From contig CAYSAU010000004.1 of NCBI GenBank assembly GCA_964429135.1, positions 127,028-191,027 of the forward strand: a DNA stretch of 64,000 bases, read 5' to 3'. The notes beneath the pieces were generated by a model, which made no database searches, was not told the DNA's origin, and saw nothing but the letters and a program-made list of their open reading frames with translations. The position numbers and the translations under genes are program-made. Positions within the stretch are counted from its first letter, which is position 1. Each line of letters begins with the position of its first letter. Shown here in pieces: positions 19,696 through 53,014 of this stretch. The DNA is from an uncultured Prolixibacteraceae bacterium. Its GTDB lineage: Bacteria; Bacteroidota; Bacteroidia; Bacteroidales; FEN-979.

Positions 19696-19837
19696 CACTA
19701 CTCCAAGTTCCAATTCGCAAATGACAGTAAATATCAGGTAAGTGGAAACTTTAATTGAGTATTTGTGTCTTTTAACTTGGTGCTTTGCTATCAAGATATG
19801 AAAGACGGGATGCAAATAATAAGTAAATTTGCGTTTC

Positions 19838-20932
19838 ATGAATAAAGCTTTTAAGAATAAACTAAGTGTAATAGTCGGTTTAAGTGGCGGGGTTGACTCT
19901 TCTATGGCAGCCTACTTGCTTAAGCAGCAAGGGTTTGACGTTATTGGAGTTACTATGGCACTATGGGATGGACAATATTACAAAACGGGAAAACATGCTT
20001 GCTATGGCTCCGATGAACAGCAGGAAATCAAGGAAGCCAGGTCGATGGCGGATAAATTGAAAATTCCCCATTATATATTTAATTGTGCCTTGGAATATAA
20101 GGATTCTGTATTACGGTATTTCCGGACTGAGTATCTTTCCGGACGTACACCGAATCCCTGTATTCAGTGTAATCAACTCATTAAATTCGGTCTTTTACCA
20201 GCTTTGGCTGAAAAAGAAGGCCTTGCCTTTGATTTTTTTGCTACCGGTCATTATGCAAAATGCTGGTGGGATGAAGCAAGACAAAGGTTTTTATTATCGA
20301 AAGCGGCAGATCCCAATAAGGATCAGACCTATTTCTTATATCGGCTGAGCCAGGAACAACTTTCAAAAGTCATGTTCCCTCTTGGGGATTATGAAAAGCC
20401 TGCCATTAAAGCCCTTGCGCATGAGGTCGGGATCACGGCAGTGGATTTGGAGGAAAGCCAGGATTTTTATGGAGGTGATTATAAAGAACTTCTCGGTACT
20501 GAAGAACATCCGGGTCATATCGTGAATTTAAAAGGGAAAGTCCTGGGACAGCATAAGGGGATTTGGAATTATACTATCGGACAGCGTAAAGGACTGGGAA
20601 TCGCTCATTCTGAACCTCTGTATGTGATTGCTTTTGATAAAGACAAAAATCATGTTATTGTCGGAACCAGGGAGGAAACTTACCATTCTTCTTTTATGGT
20701 ATCTGACCTGAACTGGATTTCATTGGAGAAACTCAAAAAACCCATGGAAGTCCTTTGCAAAACTCGTTCTGCTCAAAAAGAAAAGGAAGCACTGCTTGAG
20801 CCTATGGGAAAGGATGAGGTACTGGTAACTTTTTTTCATCCCAGCGACAGCATTGCCCCAGGACAATCGGCGGTGTTTTATGAGGGAGATGTTGTCGTCG
20901 GAGGTGGAATCATTAAATCAATCAGGAATTAA
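19838..20932 (+). CDS. mnmA: tRNA 2-thiouridine(34) synthase MnmA
   Basis: It has the PP-loop GLSGGVDSS, then RTPNPCIQCNQLIKF and DQTYFLY. The start is placed at the ATG at 19838 (MNKAFKN); the ORF-track start is a TTG at 19829. Confidence 0.92.
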   Translation: MNKAFKNKLSVIVGLSGGVDSSMAAYLLKQQGFDVIGVTMALWDGQYYKTGKHACYGSDEQQEIKEARSMADKLKIPHYIFNCALEYKDSVLRYFRTEYLSGRTPNPCIQCNQLIKFGLLPALAEKEGLAFDFFATGHYAKCWWDEARQRFLLSKAADPNKDQTYFLYRLSQEQLSKVMFPLGDYEKPAIKALAHEVGITAVDLEESQDFYGGDYKELLGTEEHPGHIVNLKGKVLGQHKGIWNYTIGQRKGLGIAHSEPLYVIAFDKDKNHVIVGTREETYHSSFMVSDLNWISLEKLKKPMEVLCKTRSAQKEKEALLEPMGKDEVLVTFFHPSDSIAPGQSAVFYEGDVVVGGGIIKSIRN

Positions 20933-20935
20933 GAG

Positions 20936-20953
20936 TGAGGAATTAGGAATTAA
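20936..20953 (+). promoter_or_regulatory. 18-nt element TGAGGAATTAGGAATTAA, copy 1 (11 nt upstream of the M28 peptidase ATG)
   Basis: It is an exact match to the reverse complement of 26409..26426. It starts 3 nt after the mnmA stop and is built of AGGAATT heptamers. Confidence 0.5.
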
Positions 20954-20964
20954 AAACAGCAGTG

Positions 20965-22749
20965 ATGAGATTTCTTAAGGTTTATACCATTTTTTTCTTG
21001 TATGGGGTTTCTTTGTCGCTTTTTGCTCAGAAGGGTGAGGTTACAACTCAGGAGCTTCATGATTTCGTGCAATTTCTGGCTTCTGATTCGTTGAAAGGAA
21101 GAAAACCCGGGAGCCCTGAGATCAATGTCGCTGCCCGTTTTATTCTTGATCATTTTAAGTCGATAGGGTTAAAACCTTTAGCGGATGACGGATATCAAAA
21201 TTTTGATATCGTTACGGATATCCAATTGGGTGAAGGGAATAGATTTGGTTTTGATGGTTTTCAGGGAGAACTGAAAAAGGATTTTATTCCCCTTGCTTTT
21301 TCTTCAAGCGGGGAAATTAATGCCCCCGTGGTTTTTGCCGGTTATGGGTTTGATCTTTCGCTCGATAGCTTGGAGCGGAATGATTATTCAGGGCTAGAGG
21401 TTAAAGGGAAATGGGTGATGGTCTTTCGTGCAGATCCTGAACTTGAAAATCCCGACAGTAGATTTATCCCTTTCAGTGATGTACGAAGCAAAATTCTGAC
21501 GGCCAAAGATAAAGGCGCTGCAGGCGTTTTATTGGTGACATCAAAAGGACTTGAAAAAGAAGATAAGCTGATGTCACTGGTCGTGGAAAACAATGAAATG
21601 ACGAGTGGGATCCCGGTGATCAATATAAAACGACAACTGGCTGATCAAATCCTGAAAAAGACCGGATGGAGGATTGACAGTCTTGAACAGGGTATGGTTG
21701 CCGGGAAGACTTCCATAGGTCTCGAGATTCCATTATACGTGTCAGCCCGGGTTGAAGTGATTCAGCAGACAGAGAAAACAGCCAATGTCGTCGCCTGCCT
21801 GGAAGGAAATGATCCCCAGTTGAAGGAGGAGTACCTTGTGGTTGGCGCTCATTATGATCATCTGGGTTTCGGAGGTCAGGGAAGCGGATCGCGGATGCCC
21901 GATTCAGTAGTCATTCATAACGGGGCTGATGACAATGCTTCAGGTACGGCCATGATCATGGCGCTGGCGGGAAAGCTTGCCGCAGAAAAGAAAAAGCTGA
22001 AGAGAAGTATCCTCTTTGTTGCATTCAGTGCAGAGGAAATCGGACTGATAGGATCAAAATATTTTACCAGTCATCCTGTGGTGGATTTAAAGAAGATTAA
22101 AACTATGTTTAACTTCGATATGGTAGGTCGTTTTGATAAGGAAAAGAACTCTATATCAGTGAGCGGAACTGCTTCCTCTATGGAAGCAGATTCAATACTC
22201 CACCAACTTGAAACCGGTCTGTCCTTTAAGGTCGTACATTCTCCGGATGGCTATGGTCCTTCAGACCATGCTTCTTTCTTTGCTGCTGATATTCCGGTTT
22301 TCTATGTCAGTACCGGTGTTCATACAGATTATCATACTCCTTATGATGATACGGAAAAACTTGATTTTCAGGGTATGAAAAAAGTTGCAGATTATGCTGC
22401 GACACTGATTCTAACCATTGATACCCTTACCAGTGCTTTAACTTTCAAAGCTGGTGGAAAAAAGGGTATAACTGGCCGTAGTGGTCGTCGCCTGAAGGTG
22501 ACCCTTGGGATCATGCCGGATTTTGCAGGCAGCGAAAAAAAGGGGCTCAGGGTGGATGGAGTGACCAAAGATGGCCCAGCGGATAAAGGAGGGTTGAGGA
22601 AAGGCGATATCATCGTGGGTTTGAATGGCATGAGCGTAGGTGATATTTATGAATATATGTCGCGTCTTTCAAAGCTGAAACATGGTATGACCGTCAACGT
22701 GGAAATAATCCGCGATGACAGACATGAAGTTTTAATCATGCAATTGTAG
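20965..22749 (+). CDS. M28 family zinc peptidase with a PA-like insert and a C-terminal PDZ domain
   Basis: It has a signal peptide, the M28 metal ligands HYDH, GADDNASG, EE(IG) and NFDMVG, and the PDZ segment GLRVDGVTKDGPADKGGLRKGDIIVGLNG. Confidence 0.85.
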   Translation: MRFLKVYTIFFLYGVSLSLFAQKGEVTTQELHDFVQFLASDSLKGRKPGSPEINVAARFILDHFKSIGLKPLADDGYQNFDIVTDIQLGEGNRFGFDGFQGELKKDFIPLAFSSSGEINAPVVFAGYGFDLSLDSLERNDYSGLEVKGKWVMVFRADPELENPDSRFIPFSDVRSKILTAKDKGAAGVLLVTSKGLEKEDKLMSLVVENNEMTSGIPVINIKRQLADQILKKTGWRIDSLEQGMVAGKTSIGLEIPLYVSARVEVIQQTEKTANVVACLEGNDPQLKEEYLVVGAHYDHLGFGGQGSGSRMPDSVVIHNGADDNASGTAMIMALAGKLAAEKKKLKRSILFVAFSAEEIGLIGSKYFTSHPVVDLKKIKTMFNFDMVGRFDKEKNSISVSGTASSMEADSILHQLETGLSFKVVHSPDGYGPSDHASFFAADIPVFYVSTGVHTDYHTPYDDTEKLDFQGMKKVADYAATLILTIDTLTSALTFKAGGKKGITGRSGRRLKVTLGIMPDFAGSEKKGLRVDGVTKDGPADKGGLRKGDIIVGLNGMSVGDIYEYMSRLSKLKHGMTVNVEIIRDDRHEVLIMQL

Positions 22750-22786
22750 ATCATTCATTTATCACTTGTTTATTGTAATTCTGGTT

Positions 22787-23188
22787 ATGGATCTTCAATC
22801 TTTCTTCAACGATGCCTTTTTACTGAAATTTATCAAATTCAGCCTGGTTGGTTTTTCAGGTGTTCTGGTGGATTTCGGGATTACCTTTATATGTAAAGAA
22901 TTTCTTAGGATTCAGAAATATTTTGCCAATGCCATAGGTTTTACATTGGCTGCTACTACCAATTACATGCTGAATCGTATCTGGACTTTTCATAGCCATA
23001 ATCCGAACATTACCCTTGAATTCACACGTTTTTTTATCATAGCCCTGATCGGGTTAGGAATCAACCTCCTCATCATATGGGCGATGTCGGGTAAATTTAA
23101 AGTGAATTTTTACCTGTCCAAACTGGTGGCCACCATCATCGTAATGGCCTGGAATTTTCTGATCAATGCGTATTATACGTTTGCCTGA
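22787..23188 (+). CDS. GtrA family membrane protein
   Basis: It has four TM segments. The pattern FIKFSLVGFSGVLVDFG...NYMLNRIWTF is typical of GtrA. The start is placed at the ATG at 22787. Confidence 0.75.
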   Translation: MDLQSFFNDAFLLKFIKFSLVGFSGVLVDFGITFICKEFLRIQKYFANAIGFTLAATTNYMLNRIWTFHSHNPNITLEFTRFFIIALIGLGINLLIIWAMSGKFKVNFYLSKLVATIIVMAWNFLINAYYTFA

Positions 23189-23265
23189 AAAGGATTGCAC
23201 TGAAAGAAATAATCTATCCGGCAAATCTCAGATTATTCCCTATGATTTTTATCTAGGCTACCTTG

Positions 23266-24156
23266 CTATTGAGTTTTTGTCATGGTGGCGGGAATGCAGA
23301 TAATAAAATCAGCTTTCCCGAAGTGTTCTTCCTCCAGCTTTGTCATGTTGTCCTGTTCCACACAACTGATGGTCAGGATTTTCACGGGAACAGTATTTTT
23401 CCGGATGTAGTCTTTGACATACCATACGACACCTTCATGGTTATCGCTGTGATAGGCGCCATTGAAATGGAGGAAACACATCCCGGTTCCCGGCCCGCCT
23501 TTCATGATGAATTGTGCCATGGTGGCATCTTTCAGCGCTTGAGCCTGACCGAGGTTTTGGGTCAGATGGGCTGGCATTCCGGCACCAACAACTTTCGCGA
23601 TGGAGCGATAACACTCCAGGGTGGTGTCGTATTTAATGGGGAGGGTAGCCATTAATCCACGCTGAGCCGCATTGAGGCTGTCGAGTCCTTCAAAGCCTTT
23701 CTGGTTGACCAGGGCTGCATATCTCCGGGGGACATTGGTGGCCACGAACGTTAACCCTTTTTCCCTGGCGAAGTCGAGCAGGGGAGCATAATCGGTCTTA
23801 TAATTTGCCCAAAGTTTGGCTTCCGCTTCAAAATCCTTTTTCCGGATTTGCTTGGAGATATATTCACTGACAAGCAACTGATTATCCCTTTCAAACATTT
23901 CTGCTCCCATCATCAGATGGTCTGTTTTTTCTTCATACAGGTCGCGCATCAGCTCATATTCCAGCCAATGACAGATAGGATTATCATGTAATTCGCCGAA
24001 AAAGATAAGATCGGATGATTTTGCCGCTTTCAGAAGAGCTGTATAATCAAATGATTTTCCCTGGGAGGAAAAGATCACGTAAGCAGGTTTGTCGCTTTTA
24101 AAAGCAGTAAGAATAAAAAAACCAAGCAGTATCAAGAGGGTGGAATATTTTTTCAT
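23266..24156 (-). CDS. ChaN-like (DUF399 / haem-binding uptake family) secreted protein
   Basis: It has a signal peptide and IFFGELHDNPICHWLEYELMRDL, the hallmark of the ChaN/Cofac_haem_bdg family. This is recognition by eye. Confidence 0.6.
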   Translation of the reverse strand: MKKYSTLLILLGFFILTAFKSDKPAYVIFSSQGKSFDYTALLKAAKSSDLIFFGELHDNPICHWLEYELMRDLYEEKTDHLMMGAEMFERDNQLLVSEYISKQIRKKDFEAEAKLWANYKTDYAPLLDFAREKGLTFVATNVPRRYAALVNQKGFEGLDSLNAAQRGLMATLPIKYDTTLECYRSIAKVVGAGMPAHLTQNLGQAQALKDATMAQFIMKGGPGTGMCFLHFNGAYHSDNHEGVVWYVKDYIRKNTVPVKILTISCVEQDNMTKLEEEHFGKADFIICIPATMTKTQ

Positions 24157-24164
24157 AGGAAGAA

Positions 24165-24662
24165 TTATTTGGGATCTTTCATCAGGTTTGTTTCCATAAA
24201 GGCCAGGGGCAGCAAAGTCTGCATCCCCTCTATCACATAAATTGATCCGCTTTGCCCGCCCAGGATCAGTCTGATTTTTTGTCGAAATTTTATTTCATAT
24301 TCAACGATGGCCTGGCGACATAAGCCACAGGGAGGAACGGGTTCATTCACCCGGAAAGAATCCGCGCTGGCTGTAATGGCAAGGGCTTTGATCGGGATAC
24401 CGGGATACTGTGATACAGCAGCATAAACGGCTACGCGTTCAGCACATAAGCCGGAAGGAAAGGCCATGTTTTCCTGGTTGCTCCCGCTGATAACAATACC
24501 GTTTTCCAGCATTGCTGCCGCCCCGACATGGTAATTAGAATAGGGAGCATAGGAGGAGATCAGTGCCTTTTTGGCAGCATCAAGCAACCCACGGTCTTCC
24601 CCGCACAATTCCTTGTCGGAATCAAAAATCTGGTAATCGAATGAATGTGTGCAATGTTTCAT
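24165..24662 (-). CDS. cdd: cytidine deaminase
   Basis: It has the zinc ligands CAERVAV and PCGLCRQ. The start is moved to M15 (24662) so that it does not overlap the upstream peptidase stop at 24673. Confidence 0.88.
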   Translation of the reverse strand: MKHCTHSFDYQIFDSDKELCGEDRGLLDAAKKALISSYAPYSNYHVGAAAMLENGIVISGSNQENMAFPSGLCAERVAVYAAVSQYPGIPIKALAITASADSFRVNEPVPPCGLCRQAIVEYEIKFRQKIRLILGGQSGSIYVIEGMQTLLPLAFMETNLMKDPK

Positions 24663-24672
24663 GGGAGAGGGT

Positions 24673-26397
24673 TTAATCCAGCAAATTATCATCCTCCTCC
24701 TCAACGGCCGGATTTAAGGTATCCGGTTTGGGCGGAATATATTTCCCGCTCAGAATGCCGGTATATTTTTCTGGATCTTTAAGGGTAGAGATGGCCAGTG
24801 TAATTTCCGGATCCTTGTTCAGTGAAGATTCGATTTTTCCTTTTTGATAGTAATACCGGGTGACGATTTCCATTTTCAGCAGCTCACGTATCTGGCTTTC
24901 ATATTTTTTAAGGTCCTCTTTTTTATCACTTTCTATTTTTGCTTTCAGATGATCGTATTCTTCCTGTATGGCGCTGAGATAATTTTCCTTTTCCGCTTCT
25001 TTTTTCAACCGTTCGAGTGCCTGTTCGCTGCTGGTAGTATAGGAATAGTTTTTATCGGCTAAATAATTCAGGAAATCCTGGTAAGTATCTTCATCGAGTT
25101 CGAAATTGGATGCAGGGGGAATGGTTTTATTGAGTCTGGCAAATCGTGTGGCATAATCGAAGATCAGAAACTTTCGGTAAAGGGTGGTGGCCAGAGTGCT
25201 GAATTTCCGCGGAGGTAAAATCAGATCAGGACTGATACCACCTCCGTCGTAGACACTTCTTCCATTTTTGGTTTTAAATTCCCGGATCAGAGAATCAGGT
25301 ATTTTTCCGAAAGCGCCTTCCTTGTTTTTATGGGAATAGTCGATGGCCTGGATACAGCGCCCGCTTGGAATATAATATTTAGCAACGGTTATTTTTAGCT
25401 GAGCATTGTAGCTCAGGGGAACCACATTCTGAACCAGTCCTTTACCGAAGGTTCTTTGGCCGATAATGACTCCACGGTCGAGGTCCTGAATAGATCCGGC
25501 AAGGATCTCGCTGGCTGAAGCGCTCTGACGGTCAACCATAATGGCAAGGGGTATTTTAAGATCAAGTGGGGGGTTCATGGTGAGGTGGGTCCGGTTTTTA
25601 TCAGCTTTTTTGCCTTTGGTACTGACGATTTCCTGTCCGCGTTCCACAAATAAATTCGCGATGTCAACGGCTTCATTAAGTAATCCGCCTCCATTACCCC
25701 TTAGATCTAAAATAATCCCTTTTAATTCGCGGGATTCTTTAAGTTTCAGAAAAGCCTGCTTCACCTCTTTTGCTGCATTTTGAGTGAAACCGGAAATCTT
25801 CACATATCCGATTTGGGAATCAACCATTCCCGCATACGGGATGTTGTCGATTTTTATAATTTCACGGGTAATGTTCAATTCAATTGGAGCAGTTTCACCC
25901 TCCCGTTCAATCACCAGATCAATCTTAGTTCCGGGTTGTCCTTTGAGTATGGCACTGACCTGATCGTAAGTCTTGTTTTTAGCAGACTGATGGTTGACCT
26001 CAATGATTTTATCCCCGGCTTTTAATCCGGCTTTCCAGGCTGGTGAACCCTCGTAAGGTTCTGAAATAATCACGTAATCGCCCTGTTGATGGATCAGCGA
26101 TCCTATCCCGCCATACTGACCGGTTGTAATGAATTTATAGTCTTCCACCTGTGATTCGGGAATAAAATTAGTATAGGGGTCAAGGGATTCAAGCATGGCG
26201 TTAATACCAGTCTGGGTAATTTCACCGGGTTTAATGACATCTACATATTCTGTGCTTAATTCCTTGATCAAGGTGGAATAAATATCCAGGTTTTTTAAAA
26301 TTTCAAAACCATCCTCTCCAGTTGCCTGAGCAAACAGAGAATGACTGTTAAAAAGAATAACCCAGGCAAATAACCCTATAACAACAATACGCTTCAT
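24673..26397 (-). CDS. S41 family C-terminal processing peptidase (Ctp/Tsp-like) with a PDZ domain
   Basis: It has a signal peptide, a PDZ domain (PAWKAGLKAGDKIIEVN), the catalytic region DRQSASASEILAG and TFGKGLVQ. Confidence 0.88.
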   Translation of the reverse strand: MKRIVVIGLFAWVILFNSHSLFAQATGEDGFEILKNLDIYSTLIKELSTEYVDVIKPGEITQTGINAMLESLDPYTNFIPESQVEDYKFITTGQYGGIGSLIHQQGDYVIISEPYEGSPAWKAGLKAGDKIIEVNHQSAKNKTYDQVSAILKGQPGTKIDLVIEREGETAPIELNITREIIKIDNIPYAGMVDSQIGYVKISGFTQNAAKEVKQAFLKLKESRELKGIILDLRGNGGGLLNEAVDIANLFVERGQEIVSTKGKKADKNRTHLTMNPPLDLKIPLAIMVDRQSASASEILAGSIQDLDRGVIIGQRTFGKGLVQNVVPLSYNAQLKITVAKYYIPSGRCIQAIDYSHKNKEGAFGKIPDSLIREFKTKNGRSVYDGGGISPDLILPPRKFSTLATTLYRKFLIFDYATRFARLNKTIPPASNFELDEDTYQDFLNYLADKNYSYTTSSEQALERLKKEAEKENYLSAIQEEYDHLKAKIESDKKEDLKKYESQIRELLKMEIVTRYYYQKGKIESSLNKDPEITLAISTLKDPEKYTGILSGKYIPPKPDTLNPAVEEEDDNLLD

Positions 26398-26408
26398 GTA
26401 TCTAATTC

Positions 26409-26426
26409 TTAATTCCTAATTCCTCA
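26409..26426 (-). promoter_or_regulatory. 18-nt element TGAGGAATTAGGAATTAA, copy 2 (11 nt upstream of the S41 peptidase ATG)
   Basis: The minus strand reads TAA-ATAA-TGAGGAATTAGGAATTAA-GAATTAGATAC-ATG. It is identical to 20936..20953 and has the same 11-nt spacer length to the start codon. Confidence 0.5.
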
Positions 26427-26430
26427 TTAT

Positions 26431-26652
26431 TTATGGTACCGGATCAAATCCTTTTCCTCCCCAGGGGTGGCAACGGCTTAATCGTTTTAATACCAGCCAT
26501 CCTCCTTTCCACGCTCCGTGCTTTTGAATAGCCTCAATGCCGTATTGAGAGCAACTTGGCGTAAACCGGCAGGAAGGCATGAAATAAGGCGAAATGGCTG
26601 CCTGATAAAATCGTATCAATAAAATAAAAAATTTACCGGGTAAGTTTTTCAT
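26431..26652 (-). CDS. yidD: membrane protein insertion efficiency factor YidD
   Basis: It has the signature [31 protein letters not shown] and is 73 aa long. Confidence 0.92.
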
Positions 26653-27049
26653 TTACCTCTGTTAAACGCCGTAAAAGTAAGATTATTTTAGTTTGAATTT
26701 CGGTGAAAGGGAGTATTTCTTTAGCGATATAAGTGATACAAATCAGCAAGGAGGATGTTTTAGAGTGTAAAGATGGATTCAGGTGTTGCTTATTCAGCCG
26801 GTAGCTTTCCTTCATTCTTCTCCGGATGAGGTTTCTATCAACCGCTGAATGAAAATGATGCCTAGGTACGCTGAACATCACCTGGGGAAGAGGATTATCA
26901 AAGGTTTCCACGATAAGCCAGGTCATTCGAAAAGCTGGAACATGCAGCGTTGAACCTTCCCTGAATAGCTTACGAATAAGTTGAAAACGGCTCAGCCTTT
27001 CATTTTTTTTAAAGGGTTGCTTCACAAAGCTAAGATTTTGAATAAGCAA
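26633..27049 (-). CDS. rnpA: ribonuclease P protein component
   Basis: It is a basic ~138 aa protein with [19 protein letters not shown] and [13 protein letters not shown], located immediately upstream of yidD. The start is a TTG and its exact position is uncertain. Confidence 0.75.
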
Positions 27050-27802: not shown

Positions 27803-27854
27803 GGCCTTTTTGTATTTCGCTAAATGAGTTCCTAATACCTTAAAAATCCCGTGG

Positions 27855-33281: not shown

Positions 33282-33315
33282 ACGGGGATGGGTTAAAAAC
33301 CCATCCCCGTTTTTA
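33282..33315 (+). terminator. rho-independent terminator of dnaK
   Basis: A perfect 13-bp stem forms between ACGGGGATGGGTT (33282-33294) and AACCCATCCCCGT (33298-33310) across an AAA loop, followed by TTTT. Confidence 0.85.
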
Positions 33316-33440
33316 TTAACGGAATGTTAATAAATCGTTGAAGAATTTTCAGGAATTATATGGATATTTGTATTTCTAATAGAATACGCTTCGATTATTC
33401 TTTTGAATTTTATGATCTGAAAAAAATTAAATACGGTTTT

Positions 33441-49908: not shown

Positions 49909-51018
49909 ATGAAAAGAAGCATTATATATCCATTCCTGTTGTTATTGGGATCACTTTTTCTCAATCTGGCGGCCCATGGGCAGGACATGAACTACTCCCA
50001 GTATTTCAGCACACCTATCTATTATAATCCGGCTTTTACCGGTCTGAATACCGGTTTAAGGGCAAGGTTTTTATTCAGGGATCAATGGCCAAGTTTACCC
50101 ATTGATTATAAGTCTTATTATTTTTCGGCAGACTTGGGTGATCGTAACCTGCCCGGATCAGGTGGGTTGGGAATAACCATCAATTCGGATACGCCTGGTA
50201 TTGGGTTGATCAATAACCTTTCTGCCGCCCTGAATATCGGCGTCCGCATTCCTATCACTGCTTTTCTGGTGGCCCAGGTTGGGATCAAAGCGGCTGTAAT
50301 GCAGAGAAAAATTAACTGGGAGAAACTGGTGTTTGCTGATAACCTGGATCCACGCTATGGCAATATTTATCAGACTTCTTTTGTTGCACCTGATGCCAAT
50401 AAACGGGTGGTTCCTGATTTCGGCGCTGGAGGTATCCTTCAGTTCATGAGTCCGAATTCTAATATTTCAGGGAATGTGGGATTTGCTGTGGATCATATTT
50501 TCAGACCGGATGTCGGATTTCTTTCCACCGGCGCTTCTCCTTATCCCCGCAAATGGGTTGGGCATGCCGATATCGTTATTTCAGCCGGTTCACCCGGCTC
50601 TACCTCAACTCAATATCGTGGTTCTGATGAACCGTTGAAGATAAATATCGGGGCTTTATATCAGAATCAGGCCGATCTGAATTCACTGCAGGTGGGTTTA
50701 AATCTGTTAAAATTTAATATCTATTTGGGAGGATGGTATAAAACCACCATGACTGGTCTTCCAAACAGTATTCTTGCATTGGTAGCCGGGTACCGATATA
50801 TGTTCCAGGATAACATGAGCATTAAATTCATGTATTCCTATGACCTTCAGATTTCCGGTGCGCTCCAGGGTACTGGGGGGGCTCATGAAATCAGTCTCGT
50901 TCTGGAGTTTGATAAATTATCTTTATTTGGCGGAGGTGGAAGTGGGGGTGGATACCTCCCCGGTGGTGGCGGACGTTCACGTAACGGCGGAGCCATGGAA
51001 TGTCCTTCCTTCTATTAA
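49909..51018 (+). CDS. PorP/SprF family type IX secretion system membrane protein
   Basis: It has a signal peptide, then QDMNYSQYFSTPIYYNPAFTG, which is the family hallmark. It has a beta-barrel-like alternating pattern and a Gly-rich tail ending ECPSFY. It lies immediately downstream of a type B CTD gene. Confidence 0.85.
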   Translation: MKRSIIYPFLLLLGSLFLNLAAHGQDMNYSQYFSTPIYYNPAFTGLNTGLRARFLFRDQWPSLPIDYKSYYFSADLGDRNLPGSGGLGITINSDTPGIGLINNLSAALNIGVRIPITAFLVAQVGIKAAVMQRKINWEKLVFADNLDPRYGNIYQTSFVAPDANKRVVPDFGAGGILQFMSPNSNISGNVGFAVDHIFRPDVGFLSTGASPYPRKWVGHADIVISAGSPGSTSTQYRGSDEPLKINIGALYQNQADLNSLQVGLNLLKFNIYLGGWYKTTMTGLPNSILALVAGYRYMFQDNMSIKFMYSYDLQISGALQGTGGAHEISLVLEFDKLSLFGGGGSGGGYLPGGGGRSRNGGAMECPSFY

Positions 51019-51031
51019 TATCACCTACAGA

Positions 51032-53014
51032 ATGGATTTTCCTTTCATTCTTGTATTGCTGATTCTAACTATTTTCATCCTCATCCTGCCTTCCAGGGTT
51101 CGTTTTTTCTATACTCTTTTTGTGACAGGACTGATCATTGTGATCACCTCCATACCCGCTGTTGATACCCTGTTTCATGGGTCAAGGTCTTCTTTGGTTT
51201 TTTATGACCAGGAATTGCTGGGTACGGTGACTTTTACACTCGATGGTCTTAGCGCATTTTTTATCCTGCTGACCAACTTCTCCGTCTTCATGGGCCTGCT
51301 TTATTCAAATGGGTATCTGAAGTCATATCAGAAAAATAAAACCAGGGCCAGCTTGTCTTTGCATTATTTTAGCTATTGCTGGTTGCACCTTTCCATGCTG
51401 GCTGTGCTGATGCTTCGCGACGGACTTGCTTTTTTGATTGCCTGGGAATTGATGGCTGTATCCTCCTTTATGCTGATTCTTTTTGACGCTGAAATCAGAA
51501 CAAACCTGAAAATAGCTGTAAATTATCTGATACAGATGCATATTGGATTGGTATTGTTAGTCATAGCCTTTCTTATGGAAGGAATAGATACTGGCCATTT
51601 TGGTTTTGACGGGCTGACGACTTATTTTTCCAGGCATCCCAATGCACCCTTATGTTTTCTTTTCTTTGCCGGATTCGCGATTAAGGCTGGCTTTATTCCC
51701 TTCCATACCTGGCTTCCGGAAGCACATCCAGCAGCTCCTTCTCATGTTTCAGGGGTCATGTCAGGAGTGATGATTAAAATGGGAATATATGGTATCGTCC
51801 GGGTGCTTACTTATGTTCAGTCTGATTTTATAACCATTGGAATGACTTTGCTGATCATTTCTGCTCTGACTGGCTTATATGGGGTGATGATGGCAATTGT
51901 TCAGCATGACCTGAAAAAGCTACTGGCCTATCACAGTATTGAAAACATTGGCATCATAGGGATTGGTTTGGGATTGGGATTACTGGGATTGGGATTACAT
52001 CGACCACCCCTCGTAATACTAGGATTTGCAGGCAGTTTGTTACATGTGCTTAACCATTCTTTGTTTAAGCCCTTATTGTTTTTCAGCGCAGGTTCCGTTT
52101 ACAAGGCTTATCATACAAGAAATATAGAACAGCTTGGTGGTGTGATTCATAAAATGCCCAAAACCTCGGGTTTATTTATGATAGGCGCATTATCCATTTG
52201 CGGACTTCCGCCTCTGAATGGATTCATCTCAGAGTTCCTTATCTATTATGGTTTGATTATTGGAATGTCAGCAACAGTGGTTTATTATTCCATCTCCTTT
52301 CTCCTGACCATCATTGCTTTAACGCTCATCGGTGGACTGGCTATTTTCTGTTTTACCAAAGCCTCGGGTATAGTTTTCCTCGGATCTGGCAGAACGCGTA
52401 TTGATCATGAAATAAAGGAAGTTGAAACTGGGATGTTAATCCCCCAGTATCTGATCTCCTTCATGATCATTCTCATCGGATTTATTCCCATACTATTTAT
52501 TAATCCTCTTTTGGGCATAGTTTCTTCTGTTTTTCAAGTTCCTACGGGAGAACTTGCGACAACGCTATTACCGGTTCTTGATAAGATTGTTTTGCTGAGC
52601 GTTGTCCTGATTCTTTTCGTTATTGTTTTATTGTGGGTAAGGAAGCGGAAGCTGAATTCAGCCAATGTATTCACTGCGGATACTTGGGGATGCGGATATA
52701 CTGCCGCGACAACACGTCAGCAATATTCGGCTACTTCCTATGCTGCCAATTATGCCGAATTGGCTCATCCGGTTTTACAGGAAAAAACGGACTACGCTGA
52801 AATTCATGAAGAGGATATTTTTCCTGGTAAACGTTCATTTGCCTTTCATCCATTGGATATATTCAAATCGATTCTGAATAAGATCACAGACTATTCCATG
52901 TTGGTGTTAAAAAAAATCGCCCGCCTGCAAACTGGTAACATTCAGCATTATATTCTCTATGCCTTCATTTTTATTCTGGTTATTTTTGTTTTGCTTTACC
53001 TGGAACTGATATAA
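51032..53014 (+). CDS. antiporter-like membrane subunit (HyfB / NuoL-like; EhrA-like)
   Basis: The start is placed at the ATG at 51032 (MDFPFILV); the ORF-track start at 50840 lies inside porP/sprF. It has IAWELMAVSSF (TM5 Glu), AIKAGFIPFHTWLPEAHPAAPSHVS (TM7 Lys), SIENIG and HSLFKPLLFFSAGS (TM12 Lys). Confidence 0.85.
   Translation: MDFPFILVLLILTIFILILPSRVRFFYTLFVTGLIIVITSIPAVDTLFHGSRSSLVFYDQELLGTVTFTLDGLSAFFILLTNFSVFMGLLYSNGYLKSYQKNKTRASLSLHYFSYCWLHLSMLAVLMLRDGLAFLIAWELMAVSSFMLILFDAEIRTNLKIAVNYLIQMHIGLVLLVIAFLMEGIDTGHFGFDGLTTYFSRHPNAPLCFLFFAGFAIKAGFIPFHTWLPEAHPAAPSHVSGVMSGVMIKMGIYGIVRVLTYVQSDFITIGMTLLIISALTGLYGVMMAIVQHDLKKLLAYHSIENIGIIGIGLGLGLLGLGLHRPPLVILGFAGSLLHVLNHSLFKPLLFFSAGSVYKAYHTRNIEQLGGVIHKMPKTSGLFMIGALSICGLPPLNGFISEFLIYYGLIIGMSATVVYYSISFLLTIIALTLIGGLAIFCFTKASGIVFLGSGRTRIDHEIKEVETGMLIPQYLISFMIILIGFIPILFINPLLGIVSSVFQVPTGELATTLLPVLDKIVLLSVVLILFVIVLLWVRKRKLNSANVFTADTWGCGYTAATTRQQYSATSYAANYAELAHPVLQEKTDYAEIHEEDIFPGKRSFAFHPLDIFKSILNKITDYSMLVLKKIARLQTGNIQHYILYAFIFILVIFVLLYLELI

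Follow-up and report, generated by a model that had tools for sequence, protein, structure and literature searches.

Why should two genes for secreted-type peptidases, read from opposite strands, be preceded by the same 18-nt sequence at the same distance from their start codons? The question is raised by a 64,000-nt stretch of DNA from an uncultured Prolixibacteraceae bacterium (positions 127,028 to 191,027 of contig CAYSAU010000004.1, assembly GCA_964429135.1), which we analyzed at its full length and term the window below. Here the element TGAGGAATTAGGAATTAA is located at 20936-20953 on the plus strand and at 26409-26426 on the minus strand, upstream of genes coding for an M28 and an S41 peptidase, each with a PDZ domain. 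We find, with high confidence, that each copy represents a short tandem array of the unit AGGAATT and belongs to the class of intergenic heptanucleotide simple-sequence repeats. With moderate confidence, we further propose from the sequence comparisons described below that these arrays act as an unstructured, frame-closing spacer for translation initiation between cistrons. Taken as a whole, this combination of a heptamer repeat class and an initiation spacer role is the explanation that we consider probable on balance.

The genes flanking the two sites are those named in the first-pass annotation of the window, and their identities are backed by Pfam. At the first junction, the upstream cistron is mnmA, which codes for a tRNA 2-thiouridylase (19838-20932, plus strand; PF03054, PF20259, and PF20258), and the downstream cistron (20965-22749, plus strand) codes for the M28 peptidase, which combines PA and PDZ domains with a signal peptide-like N terminus. 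At the second junction, yidD (26431-26652, minus strand; PF01809) is followed by the gene for the CtpA-like S41 peptidase with its PDZ domain (24673-26397, minus strand). No further PDZ peptidase gene was found in the 64 kb, and a clear AGGAATT array precedes each of the two. A sequence scan confirmed the positions and orientation reported for the 18-mer, and the open reading frame (ORF) coordinates bear out the distances that had been given for it. Thus, copy 1 begins 3 nt past the mnmA stop codon (ORF end 20932) and copy 2 begins 4 nt past that of yidD (ORF end 26431), and at both sites 11 nt separate the 18-mer from an ATG (20965 for the M28 gene and 26397 for the S41 gene) that is the start codon conserved in orthologues.

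Dissection of the 18-mer reveals TG, two successive AGGAATT units, and AA, that is, two perfect units together with the edges of the units neighboring them. Tandem Repeats Finder detects a period of 7 at both sites, with 4.7 copies at 20920-20952 and 3.9 copies at 26402-26428, and the construction from AGGAATT/AAGAATT heptamers with further heptamers on the flanks, as originally described, is therefore real. The array of the mnmA-M28 junction (20924-20964, plus strand), delineated from the sequence, the period-7 call, and a layout found in six species, consists of six heptamer-phase units (AGGAATT, AAGAGTG, AGGAATT, AGGAATT, AAAAACA, and GCAGTG) that run up to the ATG; copy 1 runs from the end of unit 2 through the two perfect units into the beginning of unit 5. 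The array of the yidD-S41 junction (26398-26430, minus strand), in which copy 2 is embedded, likewise runs up to its ATG and reads ATAATG, AGGAATT, AGGAATT, AAGAATT, and AGATAC. At each junction the genes are codirectional, the array occupies the whole 32- to 33-nt intercistronic gap, and its orientation is sense to the downstream gene. Both arrays are intergenic, with the sole coding overlap being that of M28-side unit 1 with the last codons of mnmA, the TAA stop of which (20930-20932) lies inside the array across units 1 and 2; the S41-side array starts right after the yidD stop codon. By virtue of its sequence, the AGGAATT unit gives TAG or TAA in all three frames within three units. An N-terminal extension of the M28 protein or a small ORF running through the array was considered and rejected, given an in-frame TAG at 20944 and the stop codons that the unit gives in every frame.

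Some peculiarities of the surrounding coding sequences were also encountered at this junction. The MnmA tail that follows the GGG(I/V)I motif (window 20908-20932; L014-L020) is variable in length and sequence among relatives, and in the clade of the window species, array unit 1 supplies the last MnmA codons and the stop, with the synonymous sites of the last seven codons being conserved. In one member of this clade (L219, 2137-4005), the publicly annotated M28 orthologue has 28 codons too many (622 aa) and extends into mnmA, the conserved ATG being located at 2221.

The first-pass annotation had held a chance match of this length to be unlikely. This is right to the extent that chance does not account for the two copies: a scan of the window allowing up to 3 mismatches recovered, as its sole further match to TGAGGAATTAGGAATTAA, a 7-nt-shifted self-match at 26402-26419, and a shuffled window yields 0.11 matches. 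The null model behind that estimate, 18 independent bases, is nevertheless inapplicable, because the 18-mer is made of tandem units of one heptamer. The actual coincidence is the presence of one heptamer unit at two sites, which is the rule in genomes with heptamer families (PMC4679880; PMC4692102). AGGAATT arrays are clear at only two places within the 64 kb, to which one degenerate site can be added, namely, a two-unit relative, AGGTATTAGGAACT (27827-27840, minus strand), which lies in the DUF4271-hemD gap of the same operon as the S41 gene and is conserved in relatives; whether it is a decayed AGGAATT array is uncertain. The intergenic region that surrounds it (27803-27854, minus strand) is unusually conserved, with a three-way identity of 0.71, and holds AAGGTATTAGGAA, possibly a decayed array of this unit within the S41 operon. 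We rejected a local duplication, or gene conversion from one peptidase junction to the other, as the source of the identity, since the sequences flanking the two sites are unrelated and the closest relative does not maintain it. We conclude with high confidence that the 18-nt identity is a by-product of two arrays of the same unit, each of which retains two perfect units in this species.

Comparisons within the clade separate the two arrays. The clade set comprises the window species and five further species with identical synteny, gathered through homologue searches and contig look-ups. The M28 proteins of these species are 92% (L215, the closest relative), 78% (L217/L214), 77% (L219), 78% (L006), and 75% (L010) identical to that of the window. 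At the M28 junction, all six species keep the six-unit layout (AGGAATT, AGGAGTG, AGGAATT, AGGAATT, an A-rich unit, and GGAATT before the ATG), and the unit count is constant. In its noncoding 19-nt core, GAGTGAGGAATTAGGAATT (20933-20951, plus strand), which was delineated by cross-species conservation, 14 of the 19 columns are invariant across the six species, with about 0.13 expected at saturation, and the mean pairwise identity is 0.91. Among the five distant species, 4-fold sites in the neighboring M28 coding sequence have reached saturation (identity of 0.39 to 0.49), and in a three-species alignment of the syntenic 22 kb, the M28-side gap is the best-conserved intergenic region (0.79 versus 0 to 0.71 for the others). 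The invariant core, set against saturated 4-fold sites, indicates that the M28-side array is under strong purifying selection.

At the S41 junction, arrays are found in five of the six species with 3 to 5 units, a variable sequence, and a gap of 30 to 44 nt; the remaining species, L010, keeps the M28-side array and has largely lost the S41-side one, with two units gone. Related genomes thus differ in unit number and sequence at the S41 junction but have a fixed count of six units at the M28 junction in all six species, and by this comparison, the S41-side array is one that drifts in both respects. Related genomes had been named at the outset as the place to look for the element, and what they hold is arrays at both junctions in five to six of the six species but not the identity of the 18-mer or its spacing. 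Already in L215, the M28 site reads TGAGGAATTAGGAAATAA and the S41 site reads TGAGGAATTTAGAATTAA, and the exact pair is not kept. In five other species, GGAATT directly abuts the M28 ATG, and at the S41 site, the last perfect unit stops 13 nt short of the ATG in the window and 17 nt short of it in L006. Judged from these alignments, the 18-mer identity and the 11-nt spacing are specific to the window species.

At closer range, contigs that are identical or 98 to 99.8% identical to the window occur in several metagenomes with the arrays unchanged, and in a small sample of about four to five strain-level assemblies (98.1 to 100% identity), the arrays are identical and without length polymorphism at both sites, which led us to reject phase variation. 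At longer range, distant relatives (about 65 to 70% identity) keep the mnmA-M28 synteny and have no AGGAATT arrays; the same junction carries (TACGATT)n in L020 and other heptamers in L014.

We then asked what signals the two junctions might carry. Searches with Rfam at gathering thresholds recovered no family anywhere in the window, and 81-nt folds at the two sites have z scores of +1.56 and +0.66 against shuffles, with the arrays unpaired in the centroid. A structured cis-regulatory RNA was rejected on these grounds, and the folding test suggested in the first-pass annotation gives no sign of structure, since neither junction folds better than its shuffles. A Bacteroidetes-type -7 box, TAAATTTG, lies just upstream of mnmA (19824-19831, plus strand) and is the only one on the plus strand between 17389 and 21239; there is no TAnnTTTG box, the -7 element that goes with an upstream TTTG in sigma-A promoters of Bacteroidetes, from the mnmA start to the M28 ATG (19832 to 20964, plus strand). 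For the S41 gene, about 1.5 kb of upstream sequence contains a single such box, at 27025 (minus strand), some 630 nt away and inside rnpA, with others lying farther upstream. From the positions of these boxes, we infer that both peptidase genes are operon internal and that the M28 gene is cotranscribed with mnmA. The very proximal promoter that had been raised as one possible role is thus unlikely, there being no -7 box near either ATG. The distance from the end of the closest AGGA to the ATG is 16 nt (M28) or 19 nt (S41), outside the 4- to 12-nt spacing of a Shine-Dalgarno (SD) sequence, in agreement with the original remark that the element is too far from the ATG to be a standard one. Further, ribosomes of Bacteroidia are reported to keep their anti-SD sequence sequestered and to be blind to SD sequences, with rpsU as the exception (PMC7797042, PMC9976891, and PMC13000453). 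The long spacing and the SD-blind class of the host together make an SD role unlikely. No sequence complementary to the 18-mer, allowing up to 3 mismatches, was found elsewhere in the window.

The membership of the arrays in a wider class becomes apparent upon examination of related Bacteroidota. The sample comprises 83 nonredundant loci (1.12 Mb in all), made up of the window, two loci from its clade, and 80 metagenome contigs that carry S41 homologues. Among exact tandem self-matches of 12 nt or longer, 33 have a period of 7, and 9, a weaker excess, have a period of 8; each other period from 2 to 15 accounts for 0 to 5, and shuffles give almost none. Counts from Tandem Repeats Finder concur with this excess. 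By crude ORF calls, 38 of the 47 period-7 arrays (about 80%) are intergenic, though about 89% of the DNA is coding. The preferred unit is specific to the genome (e.g., AGAATTT, CAGTGAA in 25 copies, GACAGAA, CCCCAGT-type, and CTAATAA), and a genome tends to reuse its unit at several sites, as in L048, L063, L076, and L085.

A period-7 array of any unit lies directly upstream of the S41 gene in a codirectional gap in 8 of 34 loci versus 9 of 327 for other genes (Fisher P = 3.6e-5), an association to be read in light of crude gene calls, loci that were collected through S41, and lineages that are not independent. No S41-upstream arrays were seen at periods 5, 6, 9, and 10. The S41-upstream arrays are those of L006, L019, L038, L040, L048, L054/L055, L076, and the window itself (26398-26430), and as their units differ between lineages, at least six independent acquisitions are implied. 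The 13 other genes with upstream arrays include several from the same neighborhood, namely, two coding for M28-PDZ peptidases (L020 and L067), two for ChaN, two for GtrA, and one for DUF4271. Recurrence before S41 with unrelated units argues against a sequence-specific operator and, as far as sequence comparison reaches, leaves open a sequence-independent role of heptamer arrays before such cistrons. On this basis, one can conceive of a bolder reading, in which the heptamer arrays of Bacteroidota would be more than slippage debris: arrays of unrelated units would have been recruited repeatedly (at least six times) before operon-internal S41 genes, and also before M28-PDZ genes, and could then be kept by strong purifying selection, as at the M28 junction of the window. 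This would imply a function of 7-nt-periodic single-stranded RNA that is independent of the unit sequence. Candidates for such a function might be a ribosome- or S1-loading spacer or a platform for Csp-type proteins in bacteria that ignore SD sequences, with envelope peptidase cistrons as the preferred clients. We regard this generalization as speculative and rather unlikely.

Several individual arrays from this sample deserve mention in their own right. The longest, in L024 (12161-12335), has about 25 CAGTGAA copies together with GGGAACT units before a ChaN-like gene that follows the S41 gene. In L019 (13066-13140), a Bacteroidota contig, the M28 and GtrA genes are separated by CCCCAGT and AACCCAG arrays (units as read on the gene strand); CCCCAGT is presumably the unit of the cyanobacterial STRR1 repeat. 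Arrays followed by their own reverse-complement array were found in L048 (1-81), L063 (564-623), and L076 (7261-7315) and in many of L094-L173 (e.g., L139, L171, L156, and L166). Such inverted pairs form long hairpins, often between convergent genes or past a stop codon, and have a terminator-like look.

The unit of the window is itself not confined to this clade. A scan for AGGAATTAGGAATTAARA, with one genome per species, retrieved at least 120 stretches, 81 matches of which were examined; among these listed matches, none is syntenic with the window sites and none is from the window clade, and 71 of the 81 are true arrays of 3 to 46 units of the form A[GA]GAAT[TG]. They come from Bacteroidota, cyanobacteria, Ignavibacteria, Chloroflexota, Verrucomicrobiota, Firmicutes, candidate phyla, and others. 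Many of the listed arrays start at the stop codon of the preceding gene or overlap with it. Their neighbors code for GroEL, AtpD, a CysN-like GTPase, BatA/VWA, thioredoxin, SurA-like and PpiC chaperones, RpoC, and L,D-transpeptidase, and no PDZ peptidase neighbor was found among the listed matches. We do not regard this recurrence of AGGAATT across phyla as special, for with about 1,200 heptamer classes and arrays being common, it is expected for any unit. About half of the 28 matches on viral contigs are chance matches within sequences coding for KELGIK-type peptides. A literal text search of the literature for AGGAATTAGGAATT and its variants found no mention of it.

The role of the arrays can now be considered. 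Because the M28-side array is under purifying selection, a cis-acting posttranscriptional role is plausible. In the mechanism that we favor, the arrays would be transcribed within polycistronic mRNAs as a C-poor, purine- and AU-rich tract unable to fold. Such a tract would close any upstream reading frame before the operon-internal peptidase cistron and keep the next start codon single stranded for the ribosome, S1, or another single-strand binder, in an organism whose ribosomes are expected to ignore SD sequences. The arrays may have arisen via slippage-type amplification of a 7-nt unit, with the M28-side array later being fixed and maintained by selection and the S41-side one still drifting. 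Several observations weigh against this proposal. The predicted stability of the initiation regions (-3.1 and -4.4 kcal/mol for the two genes versus a window median of -4.4 kcal/mol) is ordinary, as are their ranks of 7th and 22nd among 45 window genes, and an unstructured spacer is accordingly consistent with these values without being distinctive. The M28-side core is conserved in its exact sequence, including the imperfect unit AGGAGTG, for which a purely structural role is insufficient; this hints at a sequence-specific partner at that core. Finally, among the listed matches to the unit in other genomes, those within 60 nt upstream of a long ORF are divided equally between the sense (15) and antisense (15) orientations, and about 10 of the 81 are paired with an inverted array. 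The absence of an orientation bias and the inverted pairing imply that, taken together, arrays of this class do not represent a strand-specific RNA signal.

The same evidence bears on four other explanations. It is possible, though in our estimate unlikely, that the arrays are neutral simple-sequence repeats, i.e., slippage products tolerated in gaps free of signals and without a function of their own. Such an origin through polymerase slippage has been proposed in literature quoted in PMC4679880 and PMC4692102, and neutrality would agree well with the S41-side array, which varies among the six species and is nearly lost in L010, with the occurrence of other heptamers or none at the same junctions in distant relatives, and with the arrays elsewhere that lie in both orientations beside unrelated genes. 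It fares poorly at the M28 side, where 14 of 19 columns are invariant against the 0.13 expected and even an imperfect unit is conserved, where the gap surpasses every other intergenic region of the syntenic 22 kb in conservation, and where the unit number is constant in six species and strains at 98 to 100% identity have no length polymorphism. A quite different role for these repeats, control of the peptidase genes at the DNA level as a very proximal promoter or a phase-variable contingency repeat, has the slimmest prospects of all in our view. Simple-sequence repeats near starts can indeed be phase variable, and heptad repeats such as TTTTGAT in ctxAB are described as acting in some promoters. 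However, the gaps are only 32 to 33 nt long, the stretch from the mnmA start to the M28 ATG is free of TAnnTTTG boxes, the nearest box for S41 is some 630 nt off inside rnpA, the strain-level assemblies are identical, and the M28 unit count is fixed.

The first-pass annotation came closest to a shared operator, in which an RNA-binding protein or small RNA would recognize the AGGAATT array and thereby coregulate two envelope PDZ peptidases. The attraction of this idea is plain: the sole two clear arrays in the 64 kb precede the sole two PDZ peptidase genes found there, both arrays are kept in most species of the clade, the M28-side core is conserved in sequence, and heptamer arrays recur before S41 and M28 orthologues in other Bacteroidota. 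Yet those recurrent arrays have unrelated units (TTGAATA, AGAATTT, CAGTTGA, CTAATAA, TACGATT, and others), so that no sequence-specific factor can explain the association with S41 and M28, and L010 maintains its M28-side array having mostly lost the S41-side one. There is no complementary partner in the window, and the same array stands before GroEL, AtpD, CysN-like, and thioredoxin genes in other genomes. As both the between-site identity and the ATG spacing are lost in the closest relative, L215, a shared peptidase operator is not supported. Nor is there support for the specific version of a discrete 18-nt operator at a fixed 11-nt spacing for PDZ peptidases, given this loss and the arrays beside unrelated genes in both orientations, and we hold the operator in its general form to be improbable. 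Even less can be said for an array of weak SD sites, in which each AGGA would pair with the anti-SD sequence of 16S rRNA and recruit or hold ribosomes. Each unit does offer an AGGA, and the 7-nt period would bring one of them to about SD distance in an array extending up to the ATG, as with GGAATT-ATG at the M28 gene of five relatives. In the window, however, the last AGGA is 16 and 19 nt short of the respective ATG codons, Bacteroidia ribosomes disregard SD sequences outside rpsU, and the unit-2 positions that make a strong AGGAG are exactly those that vary among species, which together render this reading highly improbable.

The arrays can be compared with what has been described for other heptamer repeats. 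Heptamers are described as the most abundant class of long simple-sequence repeats in many genomes, and the LSSR class of Mrazek (2007) and the cyanobacterial STRR heptamers, as quoted in PMC4679880 and PMC4692102, belong to this literature, from which the proposal of polymerase slippage for 7-nt units also stems. TAACTGA arrays just upstream of starts are known from Beggiatoaceae, cyanobacteria, and five Bacteroidetes (MacGregor 2015; PMC4679880). They show no pattern in the function of the downstream gene, and S1, Csp, and CsrA have been proposed as candidate binders. Like the AGGAATT arrays, TAACTGA repeats are tandem 7-nt units, mostly in 2 to 6 copies, that are intergenic, lie a few nucleotides upstream of the start in forward orientation, carry stop codons in the unit, and go with the absence of canonical ribosome-binding sites. 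They differ in the unit sequence. A genome with TAACTGA repeats reuses the unit at many sites, and the 64 kb analyzed here contain two clear AGGAATT sites. Cross-species comparison demonstrates purifying selection at the M28 site, which was not demonstrated for TAACTGA. The GGGAATC repeats of Xanthomonas and the GGGGA(C/T)T repeats of Nostoc are intergenic, variable between related strains, and sometimes present as inverted pairs (Rehm 2015; PMC4692102), and heptamer repeats close to start codons, of unresolved regulatory effect, have been reported from Nostoc in a preprint. AGGAATT shares with these the period of 7, the strongly intergenic distribution, and the occasional inverted pairs, as well as the GGAAT core of GGGAATC. 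In contrast, the AGGAATT arrays are short (3 to 6 units), the M28-side one is constant in length, and since the unit has only GG, they are without the G-quadruplex potential of GGGAATC-type repeats.

Resemblances to known RNA signals can also be discerned. The arrays share with SD and standby sites a purine-rich AGGA before the start and a single-stranded leader but differ from SD sequences in their overly long spacing in the window and in a host class without SD pairing; the likeness to standby sites is a proposal of how they might work. Regulators of the CsrA/RsmA type bind targets with multiple GGA motifs, which a GGA every 7 nt resembles, although the arrays lack the hairpin-loop presentation of GGA found in operators of this type. 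The sites of HutP have the form UAG-N4-UAG, and the arrays, read as UAG GAAU UAG GAAU UAA, have the same 7-nt spacing of UAG.

A few other features of the window were noted in passing. At 33341-33362 (plus strand), AAGAATTTTCAGGAATTATATG lies upstream of a gene for a 1,545-aa protein with a Por_Secre_tail (type IX secretion) domain; three species conserve GAATTATATG, which is reminiscent of the GGAATT-ATG junction at the M28 gene in relatives. Past dnaK, at 33283-33312 (plus strand), is a GC-rich hairpin with a T run (GGGGATGGGTT...AACCCATCCCCG TTTTT), the stem of which has a different sequence in L006 and L010, as expected for an intrinsic terminator. At 51959-51998 (plus strand), within an ORF spanning 50840-53014, TGGGATTGGGATTAC of the GGGATT type occurs twice in tandem.

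Reports of intergenic heptamers in cyanobacteria, Xanthomonas, Beggiatoaceae, and some Bacteroidetes go back decades, with no function established. The locus described here offers a compact test case, in that the same unit occurs twice, with one array frozen across six species and the other drifting, and both precede genes predicted to be operon internal in a class of bacteria with SD-independent initiation. Should the conserved array neither affect translation nor bind a factor, the finding would be an ordinary simple-sequence repeat and the identity of the 18-mer would be devoid of regulatory meaning. If the conserved array does have such an effect or partner, it would provide the first functional handle on this class of repeats.

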